Virus genome (UHGV): UHGV-1292713
Reading direction: 5' to 3' (one strand)
DNA from: a virus
Length of the DNA stretch: 30,697 nucleotides
This document shows, piece by piece, positions 1 to 29,523 of the stretch (positions are counted from its first letter, which is position 1; each line of letters starts with the position of its first letter). The notes beneath the pieces were generated by a model. That model was not told where the DNA came from. It searched no databases and saw nothing but the letters and a program-made list of their open reading frames with translations. The translations under genes and the position numbers were made by a program.

Positions 1-632
1 GCAACCTGAGTAGCAAAAGCTGTTCATCCCCCATATTTTTGCTGGCGGGTTCTTTTTTCTACTGCCCTCCTCCCCAGGAAAAGCATTTCATTCTTTTCTC
101 ATTAATCGTTACTGGAGAGAAGGCGGGAAAAAGCCAGCTCTTTGGCCCTAAATAACAGCATGGCTTCAGTCCATACAGAATCTGATTTTCCAGCTCACAT
201 AATAACCAGATGATGCAGTTGCAAAATCTGGCAACATCGGATTATTATGCGCCTGTGAAAATTTCTTCACGTTTTATTCCTTGCCGCCCGTGCCTCCCAG
301 CGCGGGCTTTTTTATCCAAAAAATACCCCTCCGGAGAGGGGTATCATACAAGGGGATGACCATGATGCATGGTGCCGGGTGCCTCCCGGTGAGTCCGGCA
401 TCAGCATACGAACCCGCGATTATCCCAGAACTGACTGCTGATTCGCCCCGCCGCTTAGGGGGATTCACCATGCGTTTTTTTATTTACAAACTCTTCGCCA
501 GACAAACAACCATTAACTGGCTGAATTGTGAGGTATTTCAATTTTTAGAAAACTGACCAACCTCCGCTTATACGCCGGGCATGGAGCGGATACAAAAAAG
601 CCCCGCAAAAGCAGATCAGAAGGATTCGTTGT

Positions 633-671
633 AAAAAAAAAGCTGTCAGATTATCGCGCTAATCTGACAGC
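633..671 (-). terminator. Rho-independent terminator
   Basis: Perfect 12-bp inverted repeat gctgtcagatta / taatctgacagc (642-653, 660-671) with 6-nt loop; the plus-strand A9 run at 633-641 gives a U-tract after the hairpin on the minus strand. About 250 nt downstream of the 914..1975 gene. Confidence 0.7.
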
Positions 672-913
672 TACAGCAGGTATCCAAAAACATGGGTGGA
701 AACAATAAGTGAGTTAAGAAGACACGGTGTCGGATTTTTACCGATGAGCCGTTGGCGTGGTCAACCGTGACTCGCTTGTATCAACGATGAATTAATGAAG
801 CCAATCCTTTGCAGGCTATGTACAACCCACCACATCAGCCCTGCTGCATTGCAGGATACACTGTATCTGTAATCATTATACGGCACAGACATCCCACCAA
901 TAATTGAATTAAT

Positions 914-1975
914 TCACAAAATTGTATTTGCTGATAACATACTGATTTCCTGGATGGTCTGATTAAACCGCTCTGTCTCAAGCTCAACACCTAACGCCCG
1001 ACGCCCCAGCGCCATTGCTGCTTTTATTGTGGAACCGGATCCCATAAAGAAATCAGCAACCAGATCGCCGGGTCGACTACTGGCATTGATTATTTGCCTG
1101 AGCATATCCGCCGGTTTCTCACACGGATGTTTACCCGGGTAGAACTGAACGGGTTTATGCATCCAGACATCGGTATAAGGCACGGAGACTGATACGGAGA
1201 AATAGCGCCGGAGAGATTTAAACTCATCCAGCAATTCAGAATATTTGCGATTCAGTGAATCATAAGATGCCACCAACTGGTGGTGTGGTTGTTCCAGTTG
1301 TTGTTCCTGAAACTTCTCTGCCGCTATACGGGAAAACAGTGCCTGTAACTTCCGGTAGTCAGCCTCATTCGGCAACTGCCACTGACTGGCACCAAACCAG
1401 TGGGAAACCATATTTTTCTTACCTGTGGCTTCGGCAATTTGTTTTGCCGTTATACCCAGTTCGGCACGAGCATCCCTGAAATACGATATCAGCGGTGCCA
1501 TTATGTGCTGTTTGAGTTCCCTTTCTTTTGCCACATAGCCGTCACTTTTGCCGCGATATGGCCCCCGGTAATGTTCAGCAAACAGAACGCGCTCTGTGGC
1601 AGGAAAATATGCGCGCAGACTTTCTTTATTACACCCATTCCAACGTCCGGACGGCTTCGCCCAGATGATATGGTTAAGCACGTTGAAACGTTCACGCATC
1701 ATGATCTCAATATCAGATGCCAGGCGATGCCCACAGAACAGGTAAAGGCTTCCGGCAGGTTTCAACACCCGCCAGAACTGGGCCAGACAGTGGTCCAGCC
1801 ACTTAAGGTAATCTTCGTCCCCTTTCCACTGATTGTCCCAACCGTTGGGTTTCACCTTGAAGTAAGGCGGATCGGTAACAATCAGGTCAATGGAATCATC
1901 AGGCAGGGACTGAATAAAATGCAGGCAATCAGCGTTGATTAAATCAATACTGTTTATTTTTACAGTGTTTTTCAT
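914..1975 (-). CDS. DNA methyltransferase, beta-class amino-MTase (N6-adenine or N4-cytosine), orphan
   Basis: 353-aa ORF; DPPY motif near the N-terminus (IVTDPPYF) and FxGxG SAM-binding motif near the C-terminus (DFFMGSGST), the circularly permuted order typical of beta-class MTases. No adjacent restriction endonuclease ORF. Confidence 0.8.
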   Translation of the reverse strand: MKNTVKINSIDLINADCLHFIQSLPDDSIDLIVTDPPYFKVKPNGWDNQWKGDEDYLKWLDHCLAQFWRVLKPAGSLYLFCGHRLASDIEIMMRERFNVLNHIIWAKPSGRWNGCNKESLRAYFPATERVLFAEHYRGPYRGKSDGYVAKERELKQHIMAPLISYFRDARAELGITAKQIAEATGKKNMVSHWFGASQWQLPNEADYRKLQALFSRIAAEKFQEQQLEQPHHQLVASYDSLNRKYSELLDEFKSLRRYFSVSVSVPYTDVWMHKPVQFYPGKHPCEKPADMLRQIINASSRPGDLVADFFMGSGSTIKAAMALGRRALGVELETERFNQTIQEISMLSANTIL

Positions 1976-2124
1976 GGATCAGTAAGCGTAACTCTGGTAG
2001 GCTCACTCTGCTTTTGCGCTAAAGCAGTGGGCCATGGTTCGCTTGTGACCAGTAAGCATGAGCGAATGGCTGGCAGGTGCTACCAACACCCACCAGCCGC
2101 CCATTTTCACAAATTAAAAGCCCT

Positions 2125-2319
2125 TCATTGCTGAAGGCGTCTGTAACAGCCGAACTGGTAATCTGCCAGCCCCGCCATAACCAGCTGGGTCAGTATTAAC
2201 TGACAGCGTTCGCGTGAAAGGTATGTGTTTTGTGCTATCTCCCCGACTGTTGCCGGTTTGCCGTTTAATTCATTAAAAACAACTTTCGCCGTTTCTGTCA
2301 TATCTTGCTGTTTTAGCAT
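2125..2319 (-). CDS. Small hypothetical protein, possibly winged-helix DNA-binding
   Basis: 64-aa ORF with protein-like composition, between the methyltransferase and the 176-aa cargo gene; no recognisable motif. Confidence 0.4.
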   Translation of the reverse strand: MLKQQDMTETAKVVFNELNGKPATVGEIAQNTYLSRERCQLILTQLVMAGLADYQFGCYRRLQQ

Positions 2320-2442
2320 GTCTTTTTACCTTCATGGTTAACATGACATACCAATAACTCTTGTCTAAAAAGCCAGCAAGATAAAAAGTCAGTATTCACG
2401 ACCACCAGCGTGTTTACCGTACTGCACCAATGTTTAATTTAT

Positions 2443-2464
2443 AAAAAAACCGCGAGAACGCGGT
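2443..2464 (-). terminator. Rho-independent terminator downstream of the 176-aa gene
   Basis: Hairpin accgcg-agaa-cgcggt (2449-2464) with the plus-strand A-run at 2444-2449, giving a U-tract after the stem on the minus strand; about 40 nt after the stop at 2501. Confidence 0.6.
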
Positions 2465-2500
2465 AAGTATTGTTAAAAAAAAACAGTAATTTCACTCAAC

Positions 2501-3031
2501 TTATTTAATACATTCTTTTGCTTGCGCATAATAAATTTTATGAGTATTAGCAAGCTTAACGAAGTTATACTTAACTGCCCCTAACAGGGTTCCAACTCTT
2601 GTATGCCCTTCCATTAAATGAAGCCCTGTTGTATTACTTTTCAGCAAAGCTCGATCTATAAAAAATGGAGGTTCACACCATGTGCCAAAATTACACCAAT
2701 GCGCTTTTATTTCATCATCCATAAATACATCGCCTTTACGGGTTGTGAAATCTTCAACGACCTCATGCAAAAAATCAGGGTAAGTAGCATTATCCCCGAT
2801 AGTTAAAAAATTTTTAGTGGGAAGTTCAATCAATTTCCATTCGATTTGGTCAATATTAAGATCCCCATAAAGCTCCTGAAATCTGTCATAACCTGCCAAT
2901 CCATAATAAATCTCCTGAATTACAGGAGTGGGGGCGGCGATAGAATATTGCTCACGAAGTATTCTTTCAGCCTCAGGAGCTTTAAATATGGGTCTTTCTG
3001 AGAAAATAGGCAAAAGATCTCGGTATAACAT
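2501..3031 (-). CDS. Hypothetical protein, AT-rich cargo gene immediately downstream of Q and a tR'-like terminator
   Basis: 176-aa ORF with GGGGA Shine-Dalgarno 5 nt upstream of the ATG; locally AT-rich compared with flanking phage genes; no recognisable family motif. Confidence 0.6.
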   Translation of the reverse strand: MLYRDLLPIFSERPIFKAPEAERILREQYSIAAPTPVIQEIYYGLAGYDRFQELYGDLNIDQIEWKLIELPTKNFLTIGDNATYPDFLHEVVEDFTTRKGDVFMDDEIKAHWCNFGTWCEPPFFIDRALLKSNTTGLHLMEGHTRVGTLLGAVKYNFVKLANTHKIYYAQAKECIK

Positions 3032-3048
3032 CCATATCCCCGTGTAAG

Positions 3049-3080
3049 AAAAAATAATTTAACCCGCTCGGCGGCGGGTT
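3049..3080 (-). terminator. Rho-independent terminator downstream of Q (tR'-like)
   Basis: GC-rich hairpin aacccgc-cgccgag-cgggtt (3061-3080) followed on the minus strand by aaattatttttt (3049-3060). Lies about 105 nt after the Q stop and just before the RBS of the 176-aa gene. Confidence 0.55.
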
Positions 3081-3185
3081 CTTGGACTCATCAACGGTAG
3101 ACATACAAAGCCCATCGTTGGGAAAATCTTATCCATATTTTTTGAGAAATGCAAGCATCATGTCGCCATCTTCGGTGAAAATCAC

Positions 3186-3938
3186 TTATCTCGTCACCTT
3201 TCTCAATTGTGCTTCAGCGAATGCTTCTTCCTGCCAGCACTTTGTTACCAGTTTATCAATGACGTCTGCATATCCTTTGTACCACTGATAATCAGTCAGG
3301 TCTGGTACCAGCTTCTGGACATGACGTCGTGCCAGTGTGGTCGGTAAACGACTAAACCGGTTTCCATTGCAACGCCCACAAATCTTATAAACAGGCGCGC
3401 CATGAAGCCGGGTTCTTTTTTCATCCAGGACAATGCCTTTACCCTTACACCCTCTGCAAGCCGTGCTGACTTCTCCCTTACCATGGCAATGCTGACATAA
3501 TTCCTTCACCCACTCTTCCTTGATAACAGATTCCCCGCTTCTGGAGTGTTTCACCACTTCGCGCAATACACTATGAAATCCAGTACCAGCACAATGCTCA
3601 CAGCGAGCCTTACTTGCCGCAGACCTGGAATAATCAGCAAAGGCAAAACTCACAAGGTAAGGGATGATCTGTAACCGGGTTTCTTCACTCAATTTGTTCA
3701 ATGTCGGGTTATCCATTGCCATCGCGTAATTGAGCAGACCTTCAATCGCAAACTGAGGATCCTGAACACCAACTTTTGCCAGGAATAAGGCAAACCCAAG
3801 CGGTGCTTTCGACTGCACCATCCCCTGCGCAGCCATCACATCCGTAATCGTTAAACCACCTGAGCCTGTCGCCGGTGCGTCATCGCTCAATTTTGGAGAT
3901 TTTGGGGAGTAATATTTTGGTAAGGCTTCAAGGTTCAT
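3186..3938 (-). CDS. Late-gene antitermination protein Q (long, phage-82-like type)
   Basis: 250-aa ORF with clustered Cys/His zinc-binding motifs (CEHCAGTG, CQHCHGKG, CRGCKGKG, CGRCNG); sits between nin-region genes and a terminator-bracketed late cargo gene. Confidence 0.75.
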   Translation of the reverse strand: MNLEALPKYYSPKSPKLSDDAPATGSGGLTITDVMAAQGMVQSKAPLGFALFLAKVGVQDPQFAIEGLLNYAMAMDNPTLNKLSEETRLQIIPYLVSFAFADYSRSAASKARCEHCAGTGFHSVLREVVKHSRSGESVIKEEWVKELCQHCHGKGEVSTACRGCKGKGIVLDEKRTRLHGAPVYKICGRCNGNRFSRLPTTLARRHVQKLVPDLTDYQWYKGYADVIDKLVTKCWQEEAFAEAQLRKVTR

Positions 3939-3951
3939 GCTCGTTCTCCAC

Positions 3952-4947
3952 TTACGCCAGTACGCCTATTGCCAGCGCATGATCGATAAAACGAAATATC
4001 AGCTCCAGCTGGGAGCCATACATCTCTTCAAATGCCACGGTATCCGCATGCAGCTCGTCGTGATGCTTTCTGCACAAAGGCAACACAAAGAGGTCATGCG
4101 CTTTTGTACCCATTCCACCCTGACCATGGCCTATCAGGTGGTGGGGATCATCAGCAGGCTTTCCACAACATGCACACGGCTGTGTCTTAACCCAGCGCGT
4201 GTACTTTTCATTAACCCAGCGGCGACGTTTTGGGCGTAACATAAAAGACTCCGGCGACTCTGGCTCCACTTTCAGCGCCAGCACCTTTTTCGCTTTATCC
4301 TGGATAATGCTGGTGGCAGGAACCGAAGGAACAAGGTCACTCTCCCGGGTGACAGACGGCACAACCGGCTTCGGTAATCTCAGTGCCTTACGGGCTGCAC
4401 TTTCCGGTAAGGCATCCGCCAGGTCATTACGAACCAGCCACCAGCACAGTTCCGGCATTGTCACTACGTGACTGTCATCAAAACCGAGATCCCGACGCAC
4501 GACAGATAACACCCAGTGGGCACAGTTATCCGTTGCCATTGATTCCAGCCGTTCCGTGAACTGATCACGCAACTGGTTATCGCAGTGCCAACACAGACGA
4601 ATTGCGCCCGGCGCGTGTCGCATTGTGGTCATGTTCTCGCTGTGCCAGTCGGAATGAGGCCACTGACAGCCCTTTTCACGAAGTAACCAGCTTTCAAGAC
4701 ATTCCACGCCACCAGCACGACGGATCACTGCCTCATTGCGGAACACGGCCCGAACGGCAGGATCATCCGCCAGCGGTTGTGATGCCGCCGGAACGGCACC
4801 ACTGGCGAAAGATGAATAACGTTCCGGCTCAGGCTCCAGCAGGACACGCCCCTGCATAAACAGGGGCATCAGCTCTGAACCTGGCCTGAACAATACGATC
4901 CCCATACGCGGGGCAATTTCAGGGGTCAGTAGTGCTCTCACGGTCAC
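3952..4947 (-). CDS. DUF968-family phage protein with C-terminal Cys/His (HNH-like) motif
   Basis: 331-aa ORF; C-terminal CACCGK...HHLIGHGQGG...CRKHHDELH; position just upstream of Q is typical of lambdoid prophage DUF968 proteins. Confidence 0.55.
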   Translation of the reverse strand: MTVRALLTPEIAPRMGIVLFRPGSELMPLFMQGRVLLEPEPERYSSFASGAVPAASQPLADDPAVRAVFRNEAVIRRAGGVECLESWLLREKGCQWPHSDWHSENMTTMRHAPGAIRLCWHCDNQLRDQFTERLESMATDNCAHWVLSVVRRDLGFDDSHVVTMPELCWWLVRNDLADALPESAARKALRLPKPVVPSVTRESDLVPSVPATSIIQDKAKKVLALKVEPESPESFMLRPKRRRWVNEKYTRWVKTQPCACCGKPADDPHHLIGHGQGGMGTKAHDLFVLPLCRKHHDELHADTVAFEEMYGSQLELIFRFIDHALAIGVLA

Positions 4948-4948
4948 C

Positions 4949-5791
4949 TCAATGAACGGTATCGAGCAGCTTTAACAGCTCAGGGAATCGGGATTCGAAG
5001 AAATGCGGCTGCGTCTCGCGCGGATTTGCAGGACTGGTGATGTTCTTGCCGAACATGCAGCCTTTCGCCGTCAGCGACCAGAATTTTTTGATGTTGTTAA
5101 TCGCGGTACGGCTGTATCGTTCGCGTTGTTCAACGATCCCCAGCTTCACCATCTGGTGATATGCCTGATTAGCCGTCAGGCGGATACCATACTGTTTCAG
5201 CAGTGCACTCAGCGACAGCGTGGGGCGACTTGAGCCATCAGGCGCGTCAGCAGGAGCATCAATGGCATAGCGCGGTGCCAGATTCGGTAAGCCAACAGCC
5301 TCCTGAAGCTTCTGACAGGCTCCAAGCACTGATGACTTAGACAGGTTTAATTCCCGGCGCATAAAGTCCAGCAGGATCACGCCAGCCTGCATCTTGTCAG
5401 CAGCCTGCCCGGATAATTTTTCCGGTGTGCTGGTTACCATATCGAAAGTACGGATCACCTTCAGATGGAATGACGGGCTGATCCACATTGCATAGGCATA
5501 CACCAGTTCCTTGCAGACATACGTTCCTCCATTCCGCCCTTCTATTTTACTTACTGGTTTACTACCCAAATTTTGGGTAGTTTCATTGAATGAACCGACA
5601 CCCAAATTTTGGGTATCGATCAATTCCTGAACCAGCTCAGTAATCTGTTGGCTGGAAAGAAACTTTCCCGGCTCCTTAGTTCTGGCATTTGCACCAGATA
5701 CAACAGCAGCCCTGTGCAGATCGTTCAGGCTGTAACGACCATAAGCATCACGACGAACTTCAATACCATCAATGACCATCAGATTATTCAT
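4949..5791 (-). CDS. Phage antirepressor-like protein (KilA-N/AntA-like N-terminus, KilAC-like C-terminus)
   Basis: 280-aa ORF with a C-terminal region resembling the KilAC domain; nin-region position. Contains the palindrome triad at 5562-5614. Confidence 0.55.
   Translation of the reverse strand: MNNLMVIDGIEVRRDAYGRYSLNDLHRAAVVSGANARTKEPGKFLSSQQITELVQELIDTQNLGVGSFNETTQNLGSKPVSKIEGRNGGTYVCKELVYAYAMWISPSFHLKVIRTFDMVTSTPEKLSGQAADKMQAGVILLDFMRRELNLSKSSVLGACQKLQEAVGLPNLAPRYAIDAPADAPDGSSRPTLSLSALLKQYGIRLTANQAYHQMVKLGIVEQRERYSRTAINNIKKFWSLTAKGCMFGKNITSPANPRETQPHFFESRFPELLKLLDTVH
5562..5614. repeat. Three adjacent perfect palindromes inside the antirepressor coding sequence
   Basis: ctacccaaattttgggtag (5562-5580), ttcattgaatgaa (5582-5594), acccaaattttgggt (5600-5614); the two outer ones share the core cccaaattttggg and encode a duplicated TQNLG peptide. 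Confidence 0.6.
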
Positions 5792-5810
5792 ACTTCGTTT
5801 CTCCTCTTAA

Positions 5811-6200
5811 TCAGGCGGCTGCACCCGCCGGTTTCTCGTACTTACTGATAGTGATCTCGACCTTCCCTTCCGGGATAACCGGTCCCCACTCCACCAGCAT
5901 TCTTTTCACCTGACTGTCGTCTTCCCACACACCCGCATGGGTCAGGGCGTCAAACAGCGCCTTGTTATAGTTGTCCAGATCGCGGATCCGGTTATCCGGA
6001 GGAAACAACACGATCTCCACTGAAGCAGGTGCCGACGTTGGTTTCGGCAGACGACGTAACTGCTCAACTATTGCTGCGCACGCCGCGCTCTGGAATTTGC
6101 GCCCCGCTGCGCTTATCAGACTCTTACCAGCAAACGCCCCTTTGTTGGGGTGTCGCCAGTACGTGTTCACGCTGGGAGGGAAAGGCAAGATCAGCTTCAT
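5811..6200 (-). CDS. rusA: Holliday junction resolvase RusA
   Basis: 129-aa ORF with the RusA-type N-terminus (LPFPPSVNTYWRH) and acidic catalytic region (DLDNYNKALFDAL); typical nin-region position. Confidence 0.85.
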   Translation of the reverse strand: MKLILPFPPSVNTYWRHPNKGAFAGKSLISAAGRKFQSAACAAIVEQLRRLPKPTSAPASVEIVLFPPDNRIRDLDNYNKALFDALTHAGVWEDDSQVKRMLVEWGPVIPEGKVEITISKYEKPAGAAA

Positions 6201-6523
6201 ACTTTCAGGCCCCTCTCATGTAACCAGTGGGCTGCACGCAGCCTGGCGTTTTCCTCACCGGCAAGCAGTGCGCGGATAATCCCGACCGCCTCGCTGTCGT
6301 CGTCCTTCACCGCGGTATGAAGAGTTATCCCCCGGGCCACGCCACGCTTTATCGTGATGACGCTTTTTTTCTCCAGTGCGCGAAGATGCTCCACCGCTGC
6401 ATTCACCGAACGGTATCCCAGCATGGTTGCCACCTCCTGATTGGTTGGCGGAAAGCCACGTTCTTGCTGGTAAGAAATCAGCATATCCAGCACCTGCTGC
6501 TGGCATTGAGTTAACGTCGTCAT
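6197..6523 (-). CDS. LexA-N-terminal-like winged-helix DNA-binding protein
   Basis: 108-aa ORF; TQCQQQVLDML...GFPPTNQEVATMLGYRSVNAAVEHLRALEKK resembles the LexA DNA-binding domain; no S24 peptidase domain. ATGA-type overlap with the neighbouring gene. Confidence 0.5.
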   Translation of the reverse strand: MTTLTQCQQQVLDMLISYQQERGFPPTNQEVATMLGYRSVNAAVEHLRALEKKSVITIKRGVARGITLHTAVKDDDSEAVGIIRALLAGEENARLRAAHWLHERGLKV

Positions 6524-7173
6524 GCCGCCATCTCCCTGACCAGTTTTTCCGCCTGCTGGCGAACCTGCGCCAGAAAGGCCTCACCACATGCCTCAAGTTC
6601 ATCGCGCCCGATGTAGCTGATTGCCGGTCCCTTCCAGGTCTTGTCGAAAACAGCAATAGCACCAGCGAAGAAAGCGCCTGTCGGCACCTGCTTCTCGTCC
6701 TTCGGGATAAACCAGGCTGGCAGTTCAAAACCAATACGCCCGCGAATAAAAGCAATATGGTCTGCATCTTCCGGCCACCACACTTCGCTGGTGGCAGCTT
6801 TGATCAGGAAAACATAGCGCCCGCCTTTATCACGCATGGCACTGGCATGCTTCATGATGTAACGCATGCCGGTGATGTATTGCCCCTCATGCTGACTGGC
6901 GCGGCTGTACGGGGGATTACCAAAGGCAGCACCTTTAAGCTCCGCAAGACGTTCTGACCAGTCATGCGCCAGCGCGTTGTCTTCCGCAGTGTAATACGCG
7001 GCGCATTTGGCGTTATCACCATCAGTAAACAGATCCAGAACAAACGGGCCAAACAGGGTGTTAATTCCCCAGAAAATGTTGTCCGGCGTGCGCCACTGAT
7101 CGCCCACTTCCTTCAGTTCATGGGCTGGTTTGTTCCGCAGCTCCACCAGCGCCTGGCAATATTTATTACTCAT
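6520..7173 (-). CDS. Phage N6-adenine DNA methyltransferase (Dam-like, NPPY motif)
   Basis: ORF-track frame 6520..7206; start assigned to the ATG at 7173 (MSNKYCQ...), which overlaps the upstream stop. Motif FGNPPYS. 217 aa. Confidence 0.75.
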   Translation of the reverse strand: MSNKYCQALVELRNKPAHELKEVGDQWRTPDNIFWGINTLFGPFVLDLFTDGDNAKCAAYYTAEDNALAHDWSERLAELKGAAFGNPPYSRASQHEGQYITGMRYIMKHASAMRDKGGRYVFLIKAATSEVWWPEDADHIAFIRGRIGFELPAWFIPKDEKQVPTGAFFAGAIAVFDKTWKGPAISYIGRDELEACGEAFLAQVRQQAEKLVREMAA

Positions 7174-7661
7174 TAAGCCCCCACGTAATTCCCTGACAGA
7201 TACCACTCTTCACCCGATGCAGCGCGCTTGCTGCTTTTCCGTAAACACCGCTCACGACGCGCAAGAAAATTGTTTCGCTCTTGCTGGGAGTGGCTTTCAC
7301 GGAATGCCGCCATCCACACCGTTGCAGCACGACGGTATAAGCCCCTGGACTCCAGTTCTTCCGCCTGGCGGGTCAGGCACAAAATCACCCGGGGATCGTT
7401 AGTGCCGACATAGAAATTGCGCACAGGTCTGGATTCACGAACTGGTTGCGGTTCCGGCTCCTGCGGTATCTCAGTCAGCCGCGGGAAATGTCTGCGTGTA
7501 TCCCCTTCACAACGGTGAGCCACACGCCCACTCTGACGTAACTTGCTTGCTGACTGCAGAACGCGCTGTCGTGAGTAACCTGCAAAAGCATCCGCAATGT
7601 CTCCGGAAGTACACCCCGGATGGGCTTCAATGAATTTCTGAACGTCATTCAAAAGACTCAT
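7173..7661 (-). CDS. PerC-like transcriptional regulator family protein
   Basis: ORF-track frame 7173..7667; C-terminal region AEELESRGLYRRAATVWMAAFRESH matches the PerC/Pch signature as I recall it. ATG at 7661 chosen; a GTG at 7667 is also possible. Confidence 0.45.
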   Translation of the reverse strand: MSLLNDVQKFIEAHPGCTSGDIADAFAGYSRQRVLQSASKLRQSGRVAHRCEGDTRRHFPRLTEIPQEPEPQPVRESRPVRNFYVGTNDPRVILCLTRQAEELESRGLYRRAATVWMAAFRESHSQQERNNFLARRERCLRKSSKRAASGEEWYLSGNYVGA

Positions 7662-7663
7662 GA

Positions 7664-8605
7664 TCACCCCCTGAATCCTGCCGGGATCTGGCTGTAGTCC
7701 ACGTTGTCGTAACTGGCTTTGAAGTACGGGTCTTCGCGTTTTTCGGTGTACGTGCTGACGGACGGCGATAAGCGCAGGGAAAGCTCATCCCATTTTTCCC
7801 GCAGCTTCGACGGGCTGAGCACGTTACGGCACCAGAACGGATCGCGACTGACGCGGCTGTACATCTCGCAGATTTGTTTATGAGTACGACCATCCTGCAC
7901 ACACATCAGGCGAATTTCGTTTGCCCAGGCTGTCCAGTTCGGTTCTTTGGGACGAACCACCTCGCCGTCACATTCGGCGGCATGCTCGTACAGGGCGATG
8001 ATTTTTTTCCAGAGCCACTGTGCGCAGGTCAAATCATCCTGCGTCCCCCACTGGCGCTTTTTAGGGCTGAATACAACCGCATCAGGATGGCGAGTTAAAA
8101 AATCCTGTTCAGCCGTCTGCGTGTCCGGTTGCGAAGAGTCCGGACGAGAAGGTTTTTTATCTGACGGATCATGTTTTGATTTTACTGACGGATCCCCGCC
8201 AGATTCTGACGGGTGAAAACCCGCTTTTTTGCCAGATTTCGACGCATCAAATTTTGACGGGTCAGATTTTGATGCGTCAGATTTTGACGGGTCAGAATCT
8301 GACAGTTGAGAAAATGCCGCTGCCTGAAGCTTCGCAACGTTAAGCTGATAAACATTCGACGCATTGCGGTTACCCTGGCGACGCGCCTTACGCGTTAACC
8401 AGCCTTCTGCTTCCAGCCGTGCGATAGCCGTTCTGACGGTACTCATCCCCGCGCCAATCTGGCGGGCAATGGTTTCAATCGATGGCCAGCACACACCTTC
8501 GTCATTACTGAAATCAGCCAGGCGGGCCATAATTGCCACGCTGGATAATTTCATGCCTGACGCTGCGCAACCATCCCATACATAGCCGGTTAATTTAGTG
8601 CTCAT
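7664..8605 (-). CDS. Replication initiator (O-like), N-terminal helix-turn-helix, with iterons inside the gene
   Basis: 313-aa ORF; N-terminal wHTH; central low-complexity repeats (DPSKSDASKSDPSKFDASKSG) encoded by tandem ~15-bp DNA repeats; positioned after the cro/cII-like genes as in lambdoid replication modules. Confidence 0.55.
   Translation of the reverse strand: MSTKLTGYVWDGCAASGMKLSSVAIMARLADFSNDEGVCWPSIETIARQIGAGMSTVRTAIARLEAEGWLTRKARRQGNRNASNVYQLNVAKLQAAAFSQLSDSDPSKSDASKSDPSKFDASKSGKKAGFHPSESGGDPSVKSKHDPSDKKPSRPDSSQPDTQTAEQDFLTRHPDAVVFSPKKRQWGTQDDLTCAQWLWKKIIALYEHAAECDGEVVRPKEPNWTAWANEIRLMCVQDGRTHKQICEMYSRVSRDPFWCRNVLSPSKLREKWDELSLRLSPSVSTYTEKREDPYFKASYDNVDYSQIPAGFRG
8160..8306. 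repeat. Putative origin iterons (about 8 head-to-tail copies of a ~15-bp unit, consensus AGATTTTGACGGGTC)
   Basis: Direct repeats ctgacggatc, agattctgacgggtg, cagatttcgacgcatc, aaattttgacgggtc, agattttgatgcgtc, agattttgacgggtc, agaatctgacag read directly in the sequence, inside the initiator gene as for lambda ori within O. Confidence 0.6.
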
Positions 8606-14291: not shown

Positions 14292-14662
14292 TGGAGCCAT
14301 ACAGCCTCACACTCGATGAGGCCTGTCATTTTCTCAAAATATCCAGACCGACTGCCATTAACTGGATACGCACAGGCCGCCTACAGGCAACACGTAAAGA
14401 TCCAACCAAGCAAAAATCTCCTTACCTCACAACACGGCAAGCTTGCATTGCGGCGCTTCAGTCTCCGCTGCATACTGTCCAGGTGAGCGCGGGTGATGGC
14501 ATAACAGAGGAAAGAAAATGTCACTCTTCCGCAGAAATGAAATATGGTATGCCTCGTATTCGCTCCCGGGCGGGAAACGAATTAAGGAATCTCTTGGCAC
14601 AAAGGACAAGCGGCAAGCTCAGGAGTTGCACGACAAGCGAAAAGCAGAACTCTGGCGAGTAG
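14291..14662 (+). CDS. Excisionase-like (AlpA/Xis family HTH); 3' extent uncertain
   Basis: Start at ATG 14291 ([31 protein letters not shown]...), overlapping the upstream stop. The frame stays open to 14662, overlapping the integrase start at 14518; the functional product may be shorter. Confidence 0.45.
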
Positions 14663-15681
14663 AAAAGCTAGGGGATTTACCTGATGTCACTTTTGAAGAG
14701 GCCTGCCTAAGATGGCTTGAGGAAAAAGCTGATAAAAAATCTCTCGATTCAGATAAAAGCCGGATTGAGTTCTGGCTTGAACATTTTGAGGGTATAAGGC
14801 TTAAAGATATCTCGGAGGCAAAGATTTACTCTGCTGTAAGCAGAATGCATAACAGAAAGACGAAAGAAATATGGAAACAGAAAGTTCAGGCCGCCATCAG
14901 GAAAGGTAAAGAACCGCCTGTTTATGAACCAAAGCCAGTATCAACTCAGACAAAGGCAAAGCATCTTGCCATGATAAAGGCCATTCTCCGTGCTGCAGAA
15001 CGCGACTGGAAGTGGCTGGAAAAAGCGCCTGTCATCAAGATACCAGCGGTCAGAAACAAGCGAGTCAGATGGCTGGAAAAGGAGGAAGCAAAACGCCTTA
15101 TTGATGAGTGCCCCGAACCACTGAAATCTGTCGTCAAGTTTGCGCTGGCAACTGGTCTGAGAAAGTCGAACATCATAAATCTGGAATGGCAACAAATCGA
15201 CATGCAGCGACGAGTTGCCTGGGTGAATCCAGAAGAGAGCAAATCAAACCGCGCCATTGGTGTGGCGCTGAACGATACCGCCTGTAAAGTGTTGCGTGAT
15301 CAAATAGGCAAGCATCACAAATGGGTGTTTGTACATACCAAGGCGGCTAAGCGAGCAGATGGAACATCAACGCCTGCGGTCAGGAAGATGCGCATCGACA
15401 GCAAGACATCATGGCTATCAGCTTGTCGTCGTGCAGGAATTGAAGATTTCCGTTTCCATGACCTCAGACACACCTGGGCAAGCTGGCTGATCCAGTCAGG
15501 CGTCCCATTATCTGTGCTTCAGGAAATGGGCGGATGGGAGTCCATAGAAATGGTTCGTAGGTATGCTCACCTTGCGCCTAATCATTTGACAGAGCATGCA
15601 AGGAAAATAGACGACATTTTTGGTGATAATGTCCCAAATATGTCCCACTGTGGAATTATGGAGGATATAAAGAAGGCGTAA
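14518..15681 (+). CDS. int: Tyrosine site-specific integrase (DLP12 IntD-like, tRNA-Arg-targeting)
   Basis: 387-aa ORF with the C-terminal catalytic signature ([10 protein letters not shown]...VRRYAHL); immediately followed by a tRNA-Arg 3' fragment. Confidence 0.9.
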
Positions 15682-20048: not shown

Positions 20049-20549
20049 CAACTATTCAGATACATCACTCCCATCACATTCATTCCTCCGCATCATAGGC
20101 ATATAGACTATATCACCTTGATATTTTTCTTCTTCAGATAAAAACTGTTATCTATGTATACTTTTAAACCCAATCCGTGTAGAGTCTCTGCATAAGATAG
20201 TTTGCAGTTGCCACTTCAGCTTGCGCCATAAACCGCCTGATTTTTGCTGCCACCTGTTAGCATTCCTGTATACCTGAAACGACAATGTTTATCTACGAAC
20301 TTTAAGAACCCCCAGGATAAAAATTGTCAACTATATCATATATAACACATTACTAATTCGAGGCTATATGAACAGCATACTGATAATCACTTCGCTCCTT
20401 ATCATATTCAGCATTTTTAGTCATGCTCTAATAAAATTAGGGATTGGCATATCCAATAACCCAGACAAAACCGATGTATAAGTCAACATATACTGAATCA
20501 GACATACAATATCGCAATGAAAATCAATAATATTTTAAGGAATATCTTC

Positions 20550-21789: not shown

Positions 21790-22365
21790 CTACGGTAGGG
21801 CTGGCCATTCAATATCCGGTGCAGTTGATGTATCAACACGATTCAGCAACACCCGATACTTTTTCCAGGCTTCCAGCAACAAGGTTTCTTTCTCCGTTGC
21901 GATCTCCAGATCCACAGCATCCTGAAGCGGCGCTATATGCTCACTGGCTACCTGCATCAGGCTGTTTTTTGTTTCTTCCGCCTCCCGGATCCGGAACAGT
22001 TTTTCTGCTTCCGTATCCTTCACCCAGGCTGTGCCGTTCCACTTCTGAAACTCCCCTTCCGGGGATAACCAGGTGACATTTTCCGGTAATGAGCCGAGTT
22101 CAGAAATAAATAACGCGTCGCCGGAAGCCACGTCATAAACCGTTTTACCCCGATGATCTTCAACGAGATGCCACGATGACTCATCACTGTTGAAAACAGC
22201 CACGAAACCAGCCGGAATATCTGGCGGTGCAATATCGGTACTGTTTGCTGGCAGACCTGTATGAGGCGGAATATATGCATCACCTTCACCAATAAATTCA
22301 TTAGTTCCGGACAGCAGATTATAAATTTTTATGGTCCGTGGTTGTTCACTCATTCTGAATGCCAT
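21790..22365 (-). CDS. tfa: Tail fibre assembly protein (Tfa)
   Basis: 191-aa ORF overlapping the stf stop (TAATG); conserved Tfa C-terminus. Confidence 0.8.
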
Positions 22366-25300
22366 TATGCAAGCCTCACAATATAGTTAAATGCGATGTT
22401 TTTGACGGTGTTTTCCGCGTTACCAGCAGCGTTAACGGTGATGGTGTGTCCATGTGAGCCAATCGCAACCGAGTGCGTATGAGCACCAATACCGACAGTA
22501 TGTGCGTGAGCACCTGCAGATGCAGCTGTGCCGCTGACACTATGAGTGTGCGCTCCTGCAGCACTTGTATTCACACTGGCCGCAGACACTACCTTATGTA
22601 CTGACCCATTTTGTGACCACTGGCTGACTGCTGATGCGCCTGTGACACTATGAGTATGGTTTCCGGCACTTGCGGCTGTACCGCTCACACTGTGCGTATG
22701 CGCCCCGATGTTATTCGTGGATTTAGTGCCGTAATCAAACGACGATGTGGTTTTCGTCCCCAAATCCGTACTGGATGCGCTGGCGCTGTGGGTGTGCGAT
22801 TTAATGCCGTCCTGTTCCTGAGACAATACAGCCCGACCACTGGCAGGTTTGCCCTTAATCGTCCAGCCACGCATATCAGGGATCACGCCTGACGGATAAG
22901 CGGCTGCAAGTTTCGGGTATGCAGATTTGTCAAAAGTCTGCCCCTGCATCAGGGCATAACCAGACGGAACGGTATCTGATGGCCACGGGATTGGTGCACC
23001 GACTGGATAAAACTCTGCAGGAGGATGAGCTGAGGTGTAAAGCTGCGCCCACGGCGACCAGTTTGCGTCGGTCGTATCCCGTCGTGAACGAATAAATGCC
23101 GGAGCATGAGCACCGCTTGTACCACTCCAGCCGATGAGTAACTCACCTTCGCCAACGGCTGTCATCCCTTTCAGGTGAATGATATTTCCATACACTGTTG
23201 GATATCCGTTGTTATACACCTCGTATAACTCAAGACCTGTTGCCCCCTGCGTATTGTCTGTCAGCGCGATTACCCGACCTTTTGAAGCCAGATTAACTGA
23301 TGATACTGCTGTTCCACCTGACGGTAACGCCCCGATCTCTGATGCCGTTGGCTTATTTCTGGAGTTATAGTCCCTTCGCCAGCCAGGTGAATAATCTGTT
23401 CCGTGATTAATATAGGTAAGCTGAGCGTTAGTTGTTCCACCACCAGTGGAGGTGGTCGGTGTGGTAATGCGGATCGTCATCGCTGACTTTATCCCCATTA
23501 CTTCAATGACAGCTCCGGCGAGATGAATATTACCGCAGCCAGTATCAGTAATGATTTTATTATTGCCATAAGACCAGGAACCCTTGCACATCCAGTATGG
23601 ATGGTTAAATGCTCCCTGAGAATCCAGCCACTCGATAAACTGTGCAGTCGTCCAGTCTCCTGTTGTTGTGCTTACTGACCCACAGAAGGCGCGGCAGGCA
23701 CCAATATTTTTCGTAAAGGTGTCTTTGCCAGGGATATCCGCACCGTTCTGATCTTTCTGCAGACGTTTCTCAGCATTGTCATTGGCTGCTTTTACTGCCT
23801 TTGGCGTTGCCGCCAGCGTTTCAGACGTGCTGTTGGTCGCGCTGCTGAGCTGAACTATCCCTTTCTGTGCTGTCGTTGCATCCTGTGCGGTGTATTTCCC
23901 GTTAGCCAGGTCATACGCGGCCTTAACTGCTTTTGGCGTTGCCGCCAGTGACTCGGAAGTGCTGTCGATCGCACTGCTGAGCTGTACTATCCCCTTTTTC
24001 GTCGTGCTCGCATCCTCAAGCGCCACGGCGGATGCAATATCCTCTGCCCGTTTTGCTGCTGTCTCAGCGCGCGTTGCCGCGGATTCTGCTGTACTTTTGC
24101 TCTGTGCTGCCGCCGTCGCACTGCCAGCTGCCTCTGTCGCCTTCGTGGATGCCGTCGTGGCGCTGCCCTTCGCTGCTGACGCCTGTCTGGTCGCCTCATC
24201 TTTTGAAGCAGACGCAGATGATGCCGATGACGCCGCCGAACTGGCTGACGATGCGGCTGCCGTTTTTGAGGATTCTGCACTGGTTTCCGACGCTTTCGCA
24301 TTCGTTTCGGATGTCTTCGCTGCGGATGCAGACCTCGCTGCTGCGCTGGCCTGTTCAGCGGCTTCGCCAGCCTTCGTTGTAGCTGTTGAAGCGGACGATG
24401 CAGCGCTTTCTGCCGATTTTCCGGCGGCAGTGGCACTGGCTGAGGCCTGCCCGGCACTTGTTGACGCTGCACTGGCAGACGACGCAGCCGCTGTTTTTGA
24501 GCCTGCTGCTGCGGAGGCACTCTGTTCCGCTGCCGTTTCAGAAGCCTTGGCGTTCGTCTCGGACGTTTTTGCCGCCTTCGCGGAATTTCCTGCCGCCGTA
24601 GCCGAGGAAGCTGCGCTGCTGGCGCTCGAGGCTGCGTTCGTTTCTGATGATTTTGCCGCCTCTTTTGAAGCCGACGCATCCCGTGCTGAAGTGGCTGCTT
24701 CTGACGCTTTCGTGGTCGCGGTGGATGCAGAAGTGGCTGCTGATTGTTGTGACGCTGCCGCATTCGTTTCTGACGTTTTTGCCGTAGCGGCACTGGTGGC
24801 CGCCGCGCTTTTTGAGGACTCTGCAGCGGCAGCACTTTTTGATGCTTCAGTGGCCTTTGCTGATGCCGTTCCTGCGCTGGAAGACGCTGACTGAGCCGAC
24901 GAAGCGGCCTGTCCGGCTGACGTGCTGGCTGCGCGTGCTGAGCCTGCAGCATCAGTCGCATGGGTTGCCGCCTCACGGGCTGATGTGCTGGCATCGCTGG
25001 CTGACTTCTTCGCGGCTGCTGTGTTCTGTGCCACCGCGGACGCGTTACGCGCCACCTCTTCCACCATCAGTTCAAAACGTCTCAGTGCCTCCGGACGGGC
25101 ATCATCCTCCGTCATGGCACCGAGAAAATCATTCAGCGTACCGGGTTGAGAATCTTCATACACGGTGATGGTCCCGGCATGTGACGGCGGGAATCCCTCC
25201 ACCAACAGAATAACGCTGTACTGACCGTACTCAACGTCCATACTGTAACGCCCGGCTTCATCCGGATTTTCTGAGGCCAGCGTGTTCACCACCACCGTGT

Positions 25301-25391
25301 TGCTGTTACGTTTTGCTTTCAGCTGGATTGTGCAGTTCTGTACCGGTTTTCCTGTGCCGTCTTTCAGTACACCTGAAATCTTTACTGCCAT
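22365..25391 (-). CDS. stf: Side tail fibre protein (lambda Stf-like), with Ala/Ser-rich repeat region and C-terminal HTHS repeats
   Basis: Start assigned to ATG 25391 ([12 protein letters not shown]..., as in lambda Stf as I recall it); the ORF track begins 2 codons upstream at a GTG. Long Ala/Ser/Thr-rich low-complexity core and GAHTHSVSG repeats near the C-terminus. Confidence 0.85.
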
Positions 25392-25402
25392 ATTCACCCC
25401 AC

Positions 25403-25428
25403 AAAAAAGCCCGCCTGAACCGGCGGGC
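25403..25428 (-). terminator. Rho-independent terminator between lom and stf
   Basis: gcccgcc-ggttca-ggcgggc hairpin on the minus strand followed by T6 (plus-strand A-run 25403-25408). Confidence 0.6.
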
Positions 25429-25455
25429 TGTCATAACACTGTGTTACCTGGCTAA

Positions 25456-26055
25456 TCAGAATTTATAACCGACACCCACGATGAAACCGTCAGTGCGCCA
25501 GTCACCACTGCCTGAGCCTTCATAAGCAATATCAATGGCCACGGATTCGGTCGGGTTAAACTGCACGCCAGCCCCCCACGCCAGAGACGTGTTGCTGTGG
25601 CGACCGTCATCACTTCCGGTCAGCACATCGTGCTTTTTCCCCTTGTTGTCAGTTACGCGGATATAATCTCCGGAGAAAGTCGAAACACGGCTGTAAGCCA
25701 CACCCGCCATCGCATACGCGCTGAACCATTCATTCACGCGCACAGACGGCCCCGCCATCACGCTGAACCAGCGGTTACGCACGGAATCTTCATGCCAGCG
25801 GGTATCGCTGTAATGAGTCAGCTGGCGATTCTTGTCTTCTGCATAGCTGAATGACGTCACCATCCCCAGCGTGTCCGTAAACTCATAACGGTATTTCACG
25901 TTAATCCCGTTAAGATCATCACTGCCGGGAACGTTGGTCCGGGCATGAAGATACCCCGCGCTCAGCGTGGACTGATGTTCAGACGCCCATGCAGGCGCAC
26001 AGGATACGGCCAGACAAATGGCTGCGGACAAAATGGCGGCATAAAGTTTACGCAT
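25456..26055 (-). CDS. lom: Lom/Ail/PagC-family outer membrane beta-barrel protein
   Basis: 199-aa ORF with signal peptide; C-terminus AYEGSGSGDWRTDGFIVGVGYKF matches lambda Lom as I recall it; sits between J and stf as in lambda. Confidence 0.85.
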   Translation of the reverse strand: MRKLYAAILSAAICLAVSCAPAWASEHQSTLSAGYLHARTNVPGSDDLNGINVKYRYEFTDTLGMVTSFSYAEDKNRQLTHYSDTRWHEDSVRNRWFSVMAGPSVRVNEWFSAYAMAGVAYSRVSTFSGDYIRVTDNKGKKHDVLTGSDDGRHSNTSLAWGAGVQFNPTESVAIDIAYEGSGSGDWRTDGFIVGVGYKF

Positions 26056-26078
26056 AATTACCTCTCGCTTTTCTGCAA

Positions 26079-26103
26079 TAAAAAAGGCGTCATTTCTGAC
26101 GCC
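26079..26103 (-). terminator. Rho-independent terminator between J and lom
   Basis: ggcgtca-gaaa-tgacgcc hairpin on the minus strand followed by ttttttatt. Confidence 0.6.
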
Positions 26104-26121
26104 CGTTATGGGTTATAAAAT

Positions 26122-29523
<3,402 letters not shown>

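Follow-up and report, generated by a model that had tools for sequence, protein, structure and literature searches.

The stretch of DNA analysed here (the window) is the virus genome UHGV-1292713, 30,697 nucleotides long, and our subject is the two DNA methyltransferase genes that it carries. Both lie within one prophage arm, which extends from the late operon (position 1) to an integrase gene (14518-15681), and the element is a lambdoid prophage of E. coli, similar in type to SfV and mEp460. An earlier note on this DNA had described a beta-class methyltransferase with a DPPY motif, a Dam-like methyltransferase with an NPPY motif, and a small open reading frame (ORF) next to the first of them. 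We observed that the coordinates of all three ORFs were exact and that all three are on the minus strand. The two enzymes are intact amino-methyltransferases of different families (PF01555 and PF05869) in a single lambdoid prophage, one of them just downstream of the antiterminator gene Q and the other in the nin-type early region; the note had put them in the late cargo region and the nin region.

We first consider the protein encoded at 914-1975. It matched the whole of the Pfam model PF01555 (N6_N4_Mtase) over residues 29-340 (144.9 bits, cut-off 26.7; E 4.6e-42). DPPY was found at residues 35-38 and FFMGSG at residues 309-314, about 270 residues apart, and this is the motif order of the beta class (N-terminal DPPY, central recognition domain, C-terminal FxGxG). 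The protein showed 80% identity to M.EcoGII over 348 amino acids, that is, over the full length including the central four-helix recognition domain, and 77% identity within residues 160-237 (the target recognition domain); these identities are approximate, since the M.EcoGII reference was taken from Supplementary Table S1 of PMC11551740, a machine-read PDF with small errors. The identity to orf48 of phage SfV (U82619 / NC_003444), which is named a DNA methyltransferase in the RefSeq copy, was 94.9%. Two reconstructed ancestors, Anc291 (87% identity) and SUPREM (68%), methylate DNA in vitro (PMC11551740, Supplementary Table S3). In alignments, conservation with N15 gp52 and with Morganella phage homologues continued through the target recognition domain. 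Judged by its sequence, the protein belongs to the M.EcoGI/M.EcoGII family as an orthologue-level relative, and because of this relationship we predict that its most likely activity is the methylation of adenine with low or no sequence specificity. The homology with SfV-type phages stops at about position 957 (914-957), within the last dozen codons of the gene, so that the protein carries a different 12-residue tail and has 353 residues, not 350. The module downstream of the gene is swapped relative to SfV-type phages.

The family is well described. M.EcoGII and M.EcoGI are non-specific and methylate adenine in any context; in vitro up to 99% of adenines are methylated, and many restriction enzymes are blocked thereby (Murray et al. 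2018, PMC5778455). The two are 95%-identical paralogues from prophages of E. coli O104:H4 C227-11; their genes are unexpressed in the native lysogen, and their overexpression slows growth (PMC5778455). A homologue from ST131 with 99% identity to M.EcoGI was likewise not detectably transcribed by reverse transcription-PCR, and the prediction was that it lacks activity under the conditions used (PMC4659465). The relatives form 'a very large family' in E. coli prophages, including phage 1720a-02, and an anti-restriction role was inferred for the family by the M.EcoGII paper itself (PMC5778455). Phage 1720a-02 also matches the window.

An alternative, which the earlier note's plan to map a motif presupposes, is that the 914-1975 enzyme is a site-specific solitary methyltransferase that protects only against particular restriction systems. 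Database entries for the exact protein call it 'site-specific DNA-methyltransferase' or 'Modification methylase RsrI', and the closest solved structures are those of site-specific enzymes, e.g. M.RsrI and M.MboIIA; the identity of its target recognition domain to M.EcoGII, too, is not complete. These names, however, are automatic, and the site-specific enzymes resemble the protein only in the catalytic core, since the solved structures align only over residues 9-115 and 282-334 and skip the central domain. Even N15 and the Morganella phage show strong conservation of that domain, which is unlike a diversifying specificity. Moreover, broad activity on DNA and RNA is a property of M.EcoGI and M.EcoGII as well as of the ancestral reconstructions that bracket this protein (PMC5778455; PMC11551740). 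We therefore regard a site-specific enzyme as unlikely here, and favour an adenine methyltransferase of little or no specificity.

The position of the gene bears on when such an enzyme would be made. In SfV, vB_EcoM-720R4 and the Morganella phage the order is Q, small ORF, methyltransferase, holin, and in E. coli genomes that are identical to the window over positions 1-3200 the leftward neighbours are the holin, followed by other lysis genes and the head genes. In both SfV and N15 an annotated terminator separates the methyltransferase gene from that of the holin. This conserved order from Q to holin suggests that the EcoGII-like gene belongs to the Q-dependent late transcript, which would explain the silence of the characterised homologues in lysogens.

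The second methyltransferase, encoded at 6520-7173, has 217 residues when read from its ATG (a GTG 11 codons upstream would yield 228). It matched PF05869 (Dam) from profile position 3 to 167 of 169 (E 1.1e-45; 155.7 bits, cut-off 28.1). With the NCBIfam equivalog TIGR01712 (phage_N6A_met) it scored 255.3 bits, where the cut-off is 97.05. The profile matches of the two methyltransferases greatly exceed what chance would give. The protein is identical to SfV dam (orf41), named so by its depositors as 'DNA adenine methylase', at 215 of 217 positions (99.1%), and the region annotated as the dam promoter in SfV is present in the window with 99% identity. The SfV genome paper (Allison et al. 2002, J Bacteriol 184:1974) reportedly describes multiple DNA methylases encoded by SfV and confirmed orf41 as a functional Dam. 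Its FGNPPYS motif (residues 84-90) aligns with NNPPYS of orf32 of VT2-Sakai. In both ORFs the motifs (DPPY and FFMGSG in the first, NPPY in the second) are intact. No solved structure for the Dam family was found by sequence search. The enzyme is expected to target GATC, which is also the site of the host Dam. M.EcoVT2Dam is listed with GATC specificity in the REBASE-based Table 3 of PMC6602927, and from the record annotation we take it to be VT2-Sakai orf32 (the examined part of the VT2-Sakai record, its first 30 kb out of 60.9 kb, has no other annotated methyltransferase). The start codon of the Dam gene overlaps the stop codon upstream (TAATG) and its own stop codon overlaps the start codon downstream (ATGA); these overlaps indicate that the gene is part of the early right operon.

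Neither enzyme appears to have a partner. Profile matches of the neighbouring genes and PADLOC gave no endonuclease gene beside either methyltransferase, in agreement with the earlier note. The neighbours are a PerC-like regulator, a protein with a LexA DNA-binding domain, RusA, a KilA-N protein, DUF968, Q, a 176-residue protein and the 64-residue winged-helix ORF. The methyltransferase models of PADLOC were matched by the two methyltransferases only, and its one other match, CARF on the LexA-like protein (E 0.0029), is at chance level. DUF968/HNH (3952-4947) was considered as a partner and rejected, as it is also present in a prophage without a Dam gene. As far as the sequence tells, both methyltransferases are solitary. 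A prophage identical to the window over positions 1-3200 has no Dam gene, and the two methyltransferases are thus independent modules. The features of the arm are collected in the table.

Table. Features of the prophage right arm, listed from the early genes towards the late operon
Feature	Position	Strand	Remarks
Prophage right arm	left 15.7 kb of window	all genes (-)	lambdoid, read backwards
O-like replication protein	7664-8605	(-)	
PerC/YfdN-like protein	7173-7667	(-)	
Dam-type methyltransferase	6520-7173	(-)	
Protein consisting of LexA DNA-binding domain alone	6197-6523	(-)	
RusA	5811-6200	(-)	
KilA-N protein	4949-5791	(-)	
DUF968	3952-4947	(-)	
Antitermination protein Q	3186-3938	(-)	PF03589 Antiterm, E 1.7e-53
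Hairpin equivalent to SfV terminator downstream of Q (tR'-like)	3061-3080	(-)	
176-residue protein, function unassigned	2501-3031	(-)	
Terminator-like hairpin, ACCGCGTTCTCGCGGT then TTTTTTT (T7 tail)	2449-2464	(-)	downstream of 176-residue insert
64-residue winged-helix ORF, SfV orf47 homologue	2125-2319	(-)	
Structured leader	1976-2124	(-)	between winged-helix ORF and methyltransferase start codon
PF01555 EcoGII-like methyltransferase, 353 residues	914-1975	(-)	second gene of late operon
Terminator-like hairpin, 13-bp stem and T9 tail	641-672	(-)	downstream of methyltransferase gene, strong

Given the integrity of the genes, their catalytic motifs and families, their near-identity to named homologues, the gene order, the terminators and the lack of an endonuclease partner, we consider it highly likely that the prophage encodes two solitary N6-adenine DNA methyltransferases of different families that act at different times in lytic growth. 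The Dam enzyme would be made early, from the early right operon and translationally coupled to its neighbours, and would keep the fast-replicating phage DNA fully methylated at GATC. The EcoGII-like gene, behind the Q-controlled late promoter and terminator region, would stay silent in lysogens and be expressed only once Q has brought about antitermination, so that the replicated phage DNA would be heavily methylated just before packaging. Such a load of N6-methyladenine (m6A) would protect the DNA from restriction enzymes that cannot cut sites containing m6A, of which there are many. The winged-helix protein and the leader may limit or time the synthesis of this enzyme, which is harmful to its host. 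An anti-restriction benefit for these phages is plausible.

Some points weigh against this interpretation. What is said here of the enzymes' specificity, of when they are expressed and of protection from restriction is inferred. About 23% of the positions of the target recognition domain differ from M.EcoGII, and a narrower specificity is conceivable. The insert with the 176-residue gene has replaced the T-tract of the Q-proximal terminator (at 3061-3080 the window has AACCCGCCGCCGAGCGGGTT then AAATTATTTT, and SfV has AACCCGCCGCTGAGCGGGTTTTTTTG, annotated as a putative rho-independent terminator); with this T-tract lost, the point at which transcription stops in the lysogen is uncertain, though a second terminator follows the insert. 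GATC was neither enriched nor depleted in the prophage (59 sites observed, 61 expected from composition), and there is thus no signal of selection for or against Dam sites.

It is also conceivable that one or both enzymes are mainly regulatory, and act on replication, packaging, the stability of lysogeny or induction through GATC, or by methylating RNA. M.EcoGII methylates RNA and DNA:RNA hybrids in vitro (PMC5778455), and a Stx-phage enzyme of the MT-A70 type, annotated as a DNA adenine methyltransferase, methylates 16S ribosomal RNA (rRNA) and raises the frequency of induction (PMC10810198). That enzyme was rejected as a relative of those described here, as it is from a different family (MT-A70, with a DPPW motif) and requires a partner subunit. 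With respect to the Dam gene, E. coli hosts already own a Dam, and the phage enzyme adds no new protection in its usual host. Stable lysogeny of phage 933W reportedly needs the host Dam (Murphy et al. 2008, J Bacteriol). On the other side, the EcoGII-like gene stands behind Q and beside the lysis genes, which fits an action on progeny DNA, and a regulatory cluster of GATC sites was neither searched for nor seen in the prophage. A mainly regulatory function thus seems to us quite improbable, but regulatory and anti-restriction roles are not mutually exclusive.

We further considered whether the genes are decaying remnants of a defective prophage that encode no active enzyme. The EcoGII-like protein departs from its SfV counterpart in the final 12 or so residues, beyond the homology break at about 957, and in many Stx2a phages just a short remnant of the gene is left. 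However, the variable tail falls after the last conserved block, and each of the two reading frames has its full length and every motif. In addition, the exact 353-residue and 217-residue sequences were each found on at least 1000 public contigs. Decay is therefore very hard to reconcile with these genes, and two functional solitary enzymes remain the preferred reading.

The small ORF at 2125-2319 had been suggested in the earlier note to be a controller-like regulator. This did not hold as far as a C-type controller is concerned: the 64-residue product is predicted to be a winged-helix protein and not a homologue of the Xre-type C proteins, it has no match to HTH_3, and there is no endonuclease to control. 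Searched as a profile against PDB sequences, the protein had no significant match. It may nevertheless have a regulatory or accessory role, given its tight linkage to the methyltransferase. Among 61 loci found with the 64-residue protein (its matches in species-representative genomes), 57 were followed on the same strand, at a distance of 119-422 nt, by an EcoGII-like gene, in genera that include Kluyvera, Citrobacter, Salmonella, Klebsiella, Proteus, Providencia, Morganella, Mangrovibacter, Xenorhabdus and Photorhabdus. Conversely, this small ORF was present upstream in 76 of 79 viral loci found with the methyltransferase.

The leader between the two genes, about 150 nt long, is also conserved and appears to be structured. 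With 20 sequences from different genera, RNAalifold predicted 34 base pairs in the leader, 10 of them with compensatory changes, a number that was reached by none of 500 shuffled alignments (mean 3.0, standard deviation 1.2); controls slid along the sequence gave at most 5. The minimum free energy of the single sequence was -58.7 kcal/mol (z -2.64). One helix of the leader pairs with the 10 nt directly 5' of the methyltransferase AUG, and on direct reading of the sequence no Shine-Dalgarno motif was seen before this AUG. The leader of Xenorhabdus and Photorhabdus is shorter, and has a T-run after the first hairpin that makes it terminator-like.

The winged-helix gene, the structured leader and the EcoGII-like gene thus form a conserved cassette. 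The same Q family was present in only 33 of 80 viral methyltransferase loci. It is possible, although less likely than not, that the three parts move together between prophages with different Q proteins, and that the leader and the winged-helix protein hold back or time a methyltransferase with toxic effects on the host. Candidate functions for the winged-helix protein are repression, RNA binding, or binding to DNA that carries much m6A. The leader had no match in Rfam, and neither the leader, a role for the winged-helix protein nor the cassette was found in literature searches, which were not aimed at them.

The gene for the 176-residue protein is an insert (a moron) between the Q-proximal hairpin and the winged-helix ORF, and lies outside the methyltransferase cassette. 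The protein is absent from SfV and is carried by 6 of 80 related viral loci. The hairpin at 2449-2464 is at the 3' end of the DNA that SfV lacks.

Several other features of the window were noted. Among complete E. coli genomes none spans the window on its own; the highest coverage was 72% of positions 5001-30000. The LexA-domain protein (108 residues; 6197-6523, minus strand) is the homologue of SfV orf42 and has no peptidase domain, and its gene is translationally coupled to the Dam gene through the ATGA overlap; it could bind SOS boxes without being cleavable. Downstream of the EcoGII-like gene, a match to the small RNA STnc100 in Rfam (314-502, minus strand; 114.5 bits against a gathering score of 47) lies between the methyltransferase terminator and the lysis genes, with a terminator-like hairpin of its own at 322-345. 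No tRNA gene was found after the integrase gene, and a related prophage has a tRNA-Arg gene 15 bp past intD. Past the integrase are low-GC genes, where the best-matching genomes annotate ompT, a porin and a hydrolase, and beyond these there is an IS009 RNA match (21824-22022, minus strand). The ORFs at 22365-29520 (minus strand), of the size of a tail fibre and of J, correspond to a tail fibre and gpJ annotated in matching genomes, and may be part of a second prophage.

These results have some practical consequences. The family of the first enzyme is biochemically characterised and is used as a laboratory reagent, and annotation of the window protein as 'site-specific' or 'RsrI-like' misleads, as this is most likely a motif-less adenine methyltransferase that is expressed only in lytic growth. 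Such an enzyme would be missed by methylome surveys of lysogens. Motif mapping of the 914-1975 enzyme would most likely return no motif, and a comparison of the methylomes of a lysogen and a cured strain would probably show no change, because the first enzyme would be silent and motif-less and the second would share the host Dam site. The earlier note had proposed that the lack of a new methylated motif would count against the two enzymes; this is not a valid measure, since both could be active and yet give no new motif. Phage DNA from such prophages may broadly resist the restriction enzymes that are blocked by m6A, yet be sensitive to those that depend on it. The pairing of the two methyltransferases is not a discovery; it is real, correctly located and ordinary. 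The only mildly new element, which may be new, is the winged-helix and leader cassette, and it offers a small, testable lead on how a phage restrains a harmful enzyme.

When the window is compared with known systems, M.EcoGII and M.EcoGI resemble the 914-1975 enzyme in being beta-class PF01555 proteins of similar length (349 residues in M.EcoGII, 353 in the window protein), borne on prophages and without an endonuclease partner. They differ in that about 20% of the residues of M.EcoGII are not shared and the last 12 or so residues are unrelated. The copy closest to M.EcoGII (93.4%, by tblastn) is in a Stx2 phage, directly downstream of Q and after a small ORF; in that phage the tRNAs and stx2 come after the methyltransferase. 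Many Stx2a phages have only a short EcoGII-like remnant (residues ~316-344) between Q and the tRNA-stx2 cluster, as seen in VT2-Sakai at 20457-20543, and some Stx2/Stx2c phages have the whole gene at the same place, so that the tRNA-stx cluster directly follows the methyltransferase position. N15 has small ORFs, a terminator, the methyltransferase, a terminator and the holin, in this order. Gene 52 of N15 is annotated from an internal start (855 nt), but the frame aligns from an upstream ATG at locus position 2501 (2501-3589), and the full-length protein read from this ATG shows 56% identity to the window protein. A cytosine methyltransferase gene (gene 58) lies about 2 kb downstream of gene 52.

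The type II C proteins share with the 64-residue protein their small size, a DNA-binding type of fold and a position immediately upstream of a gene related to modification. They belong, however, to the Xre type of helix-turn-helix proteins and have an endonuclease operon as their target, and in these respects the window protein, as described above, is unlike them. VT2-Sakai orf32 is like the window Dam in its PF05869 match, in the aligned NPPY motif and in its place in the nin region of a lambdoid phage; the two are, however, only 31% identical, and the window protein has an extra C-terminal extension (217 as against 175 residues). In SfV the order is as in the window: Q, terminator, orf47 (95.3% identical to the winged-helix protein), orf48, terminator and lysis genes. 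The window is unlike SfV in the insert, 630 bp long, between the terminator hairpin and the orf47 homologue, and in having an STnc100 small RNA and a different lysis cassette downstream of the methyltransferase. SfV Dam differs from the window Dam by two conservative substitutions and has the same neighbours, with a PerC-like protein (orf40) upstream and the LexA DNA-binding-domain protein (orf42) downstream. The same methyltransferase pair is present in SfV, mEp460, 1720a-02 and Stx2c phages, and is already known.

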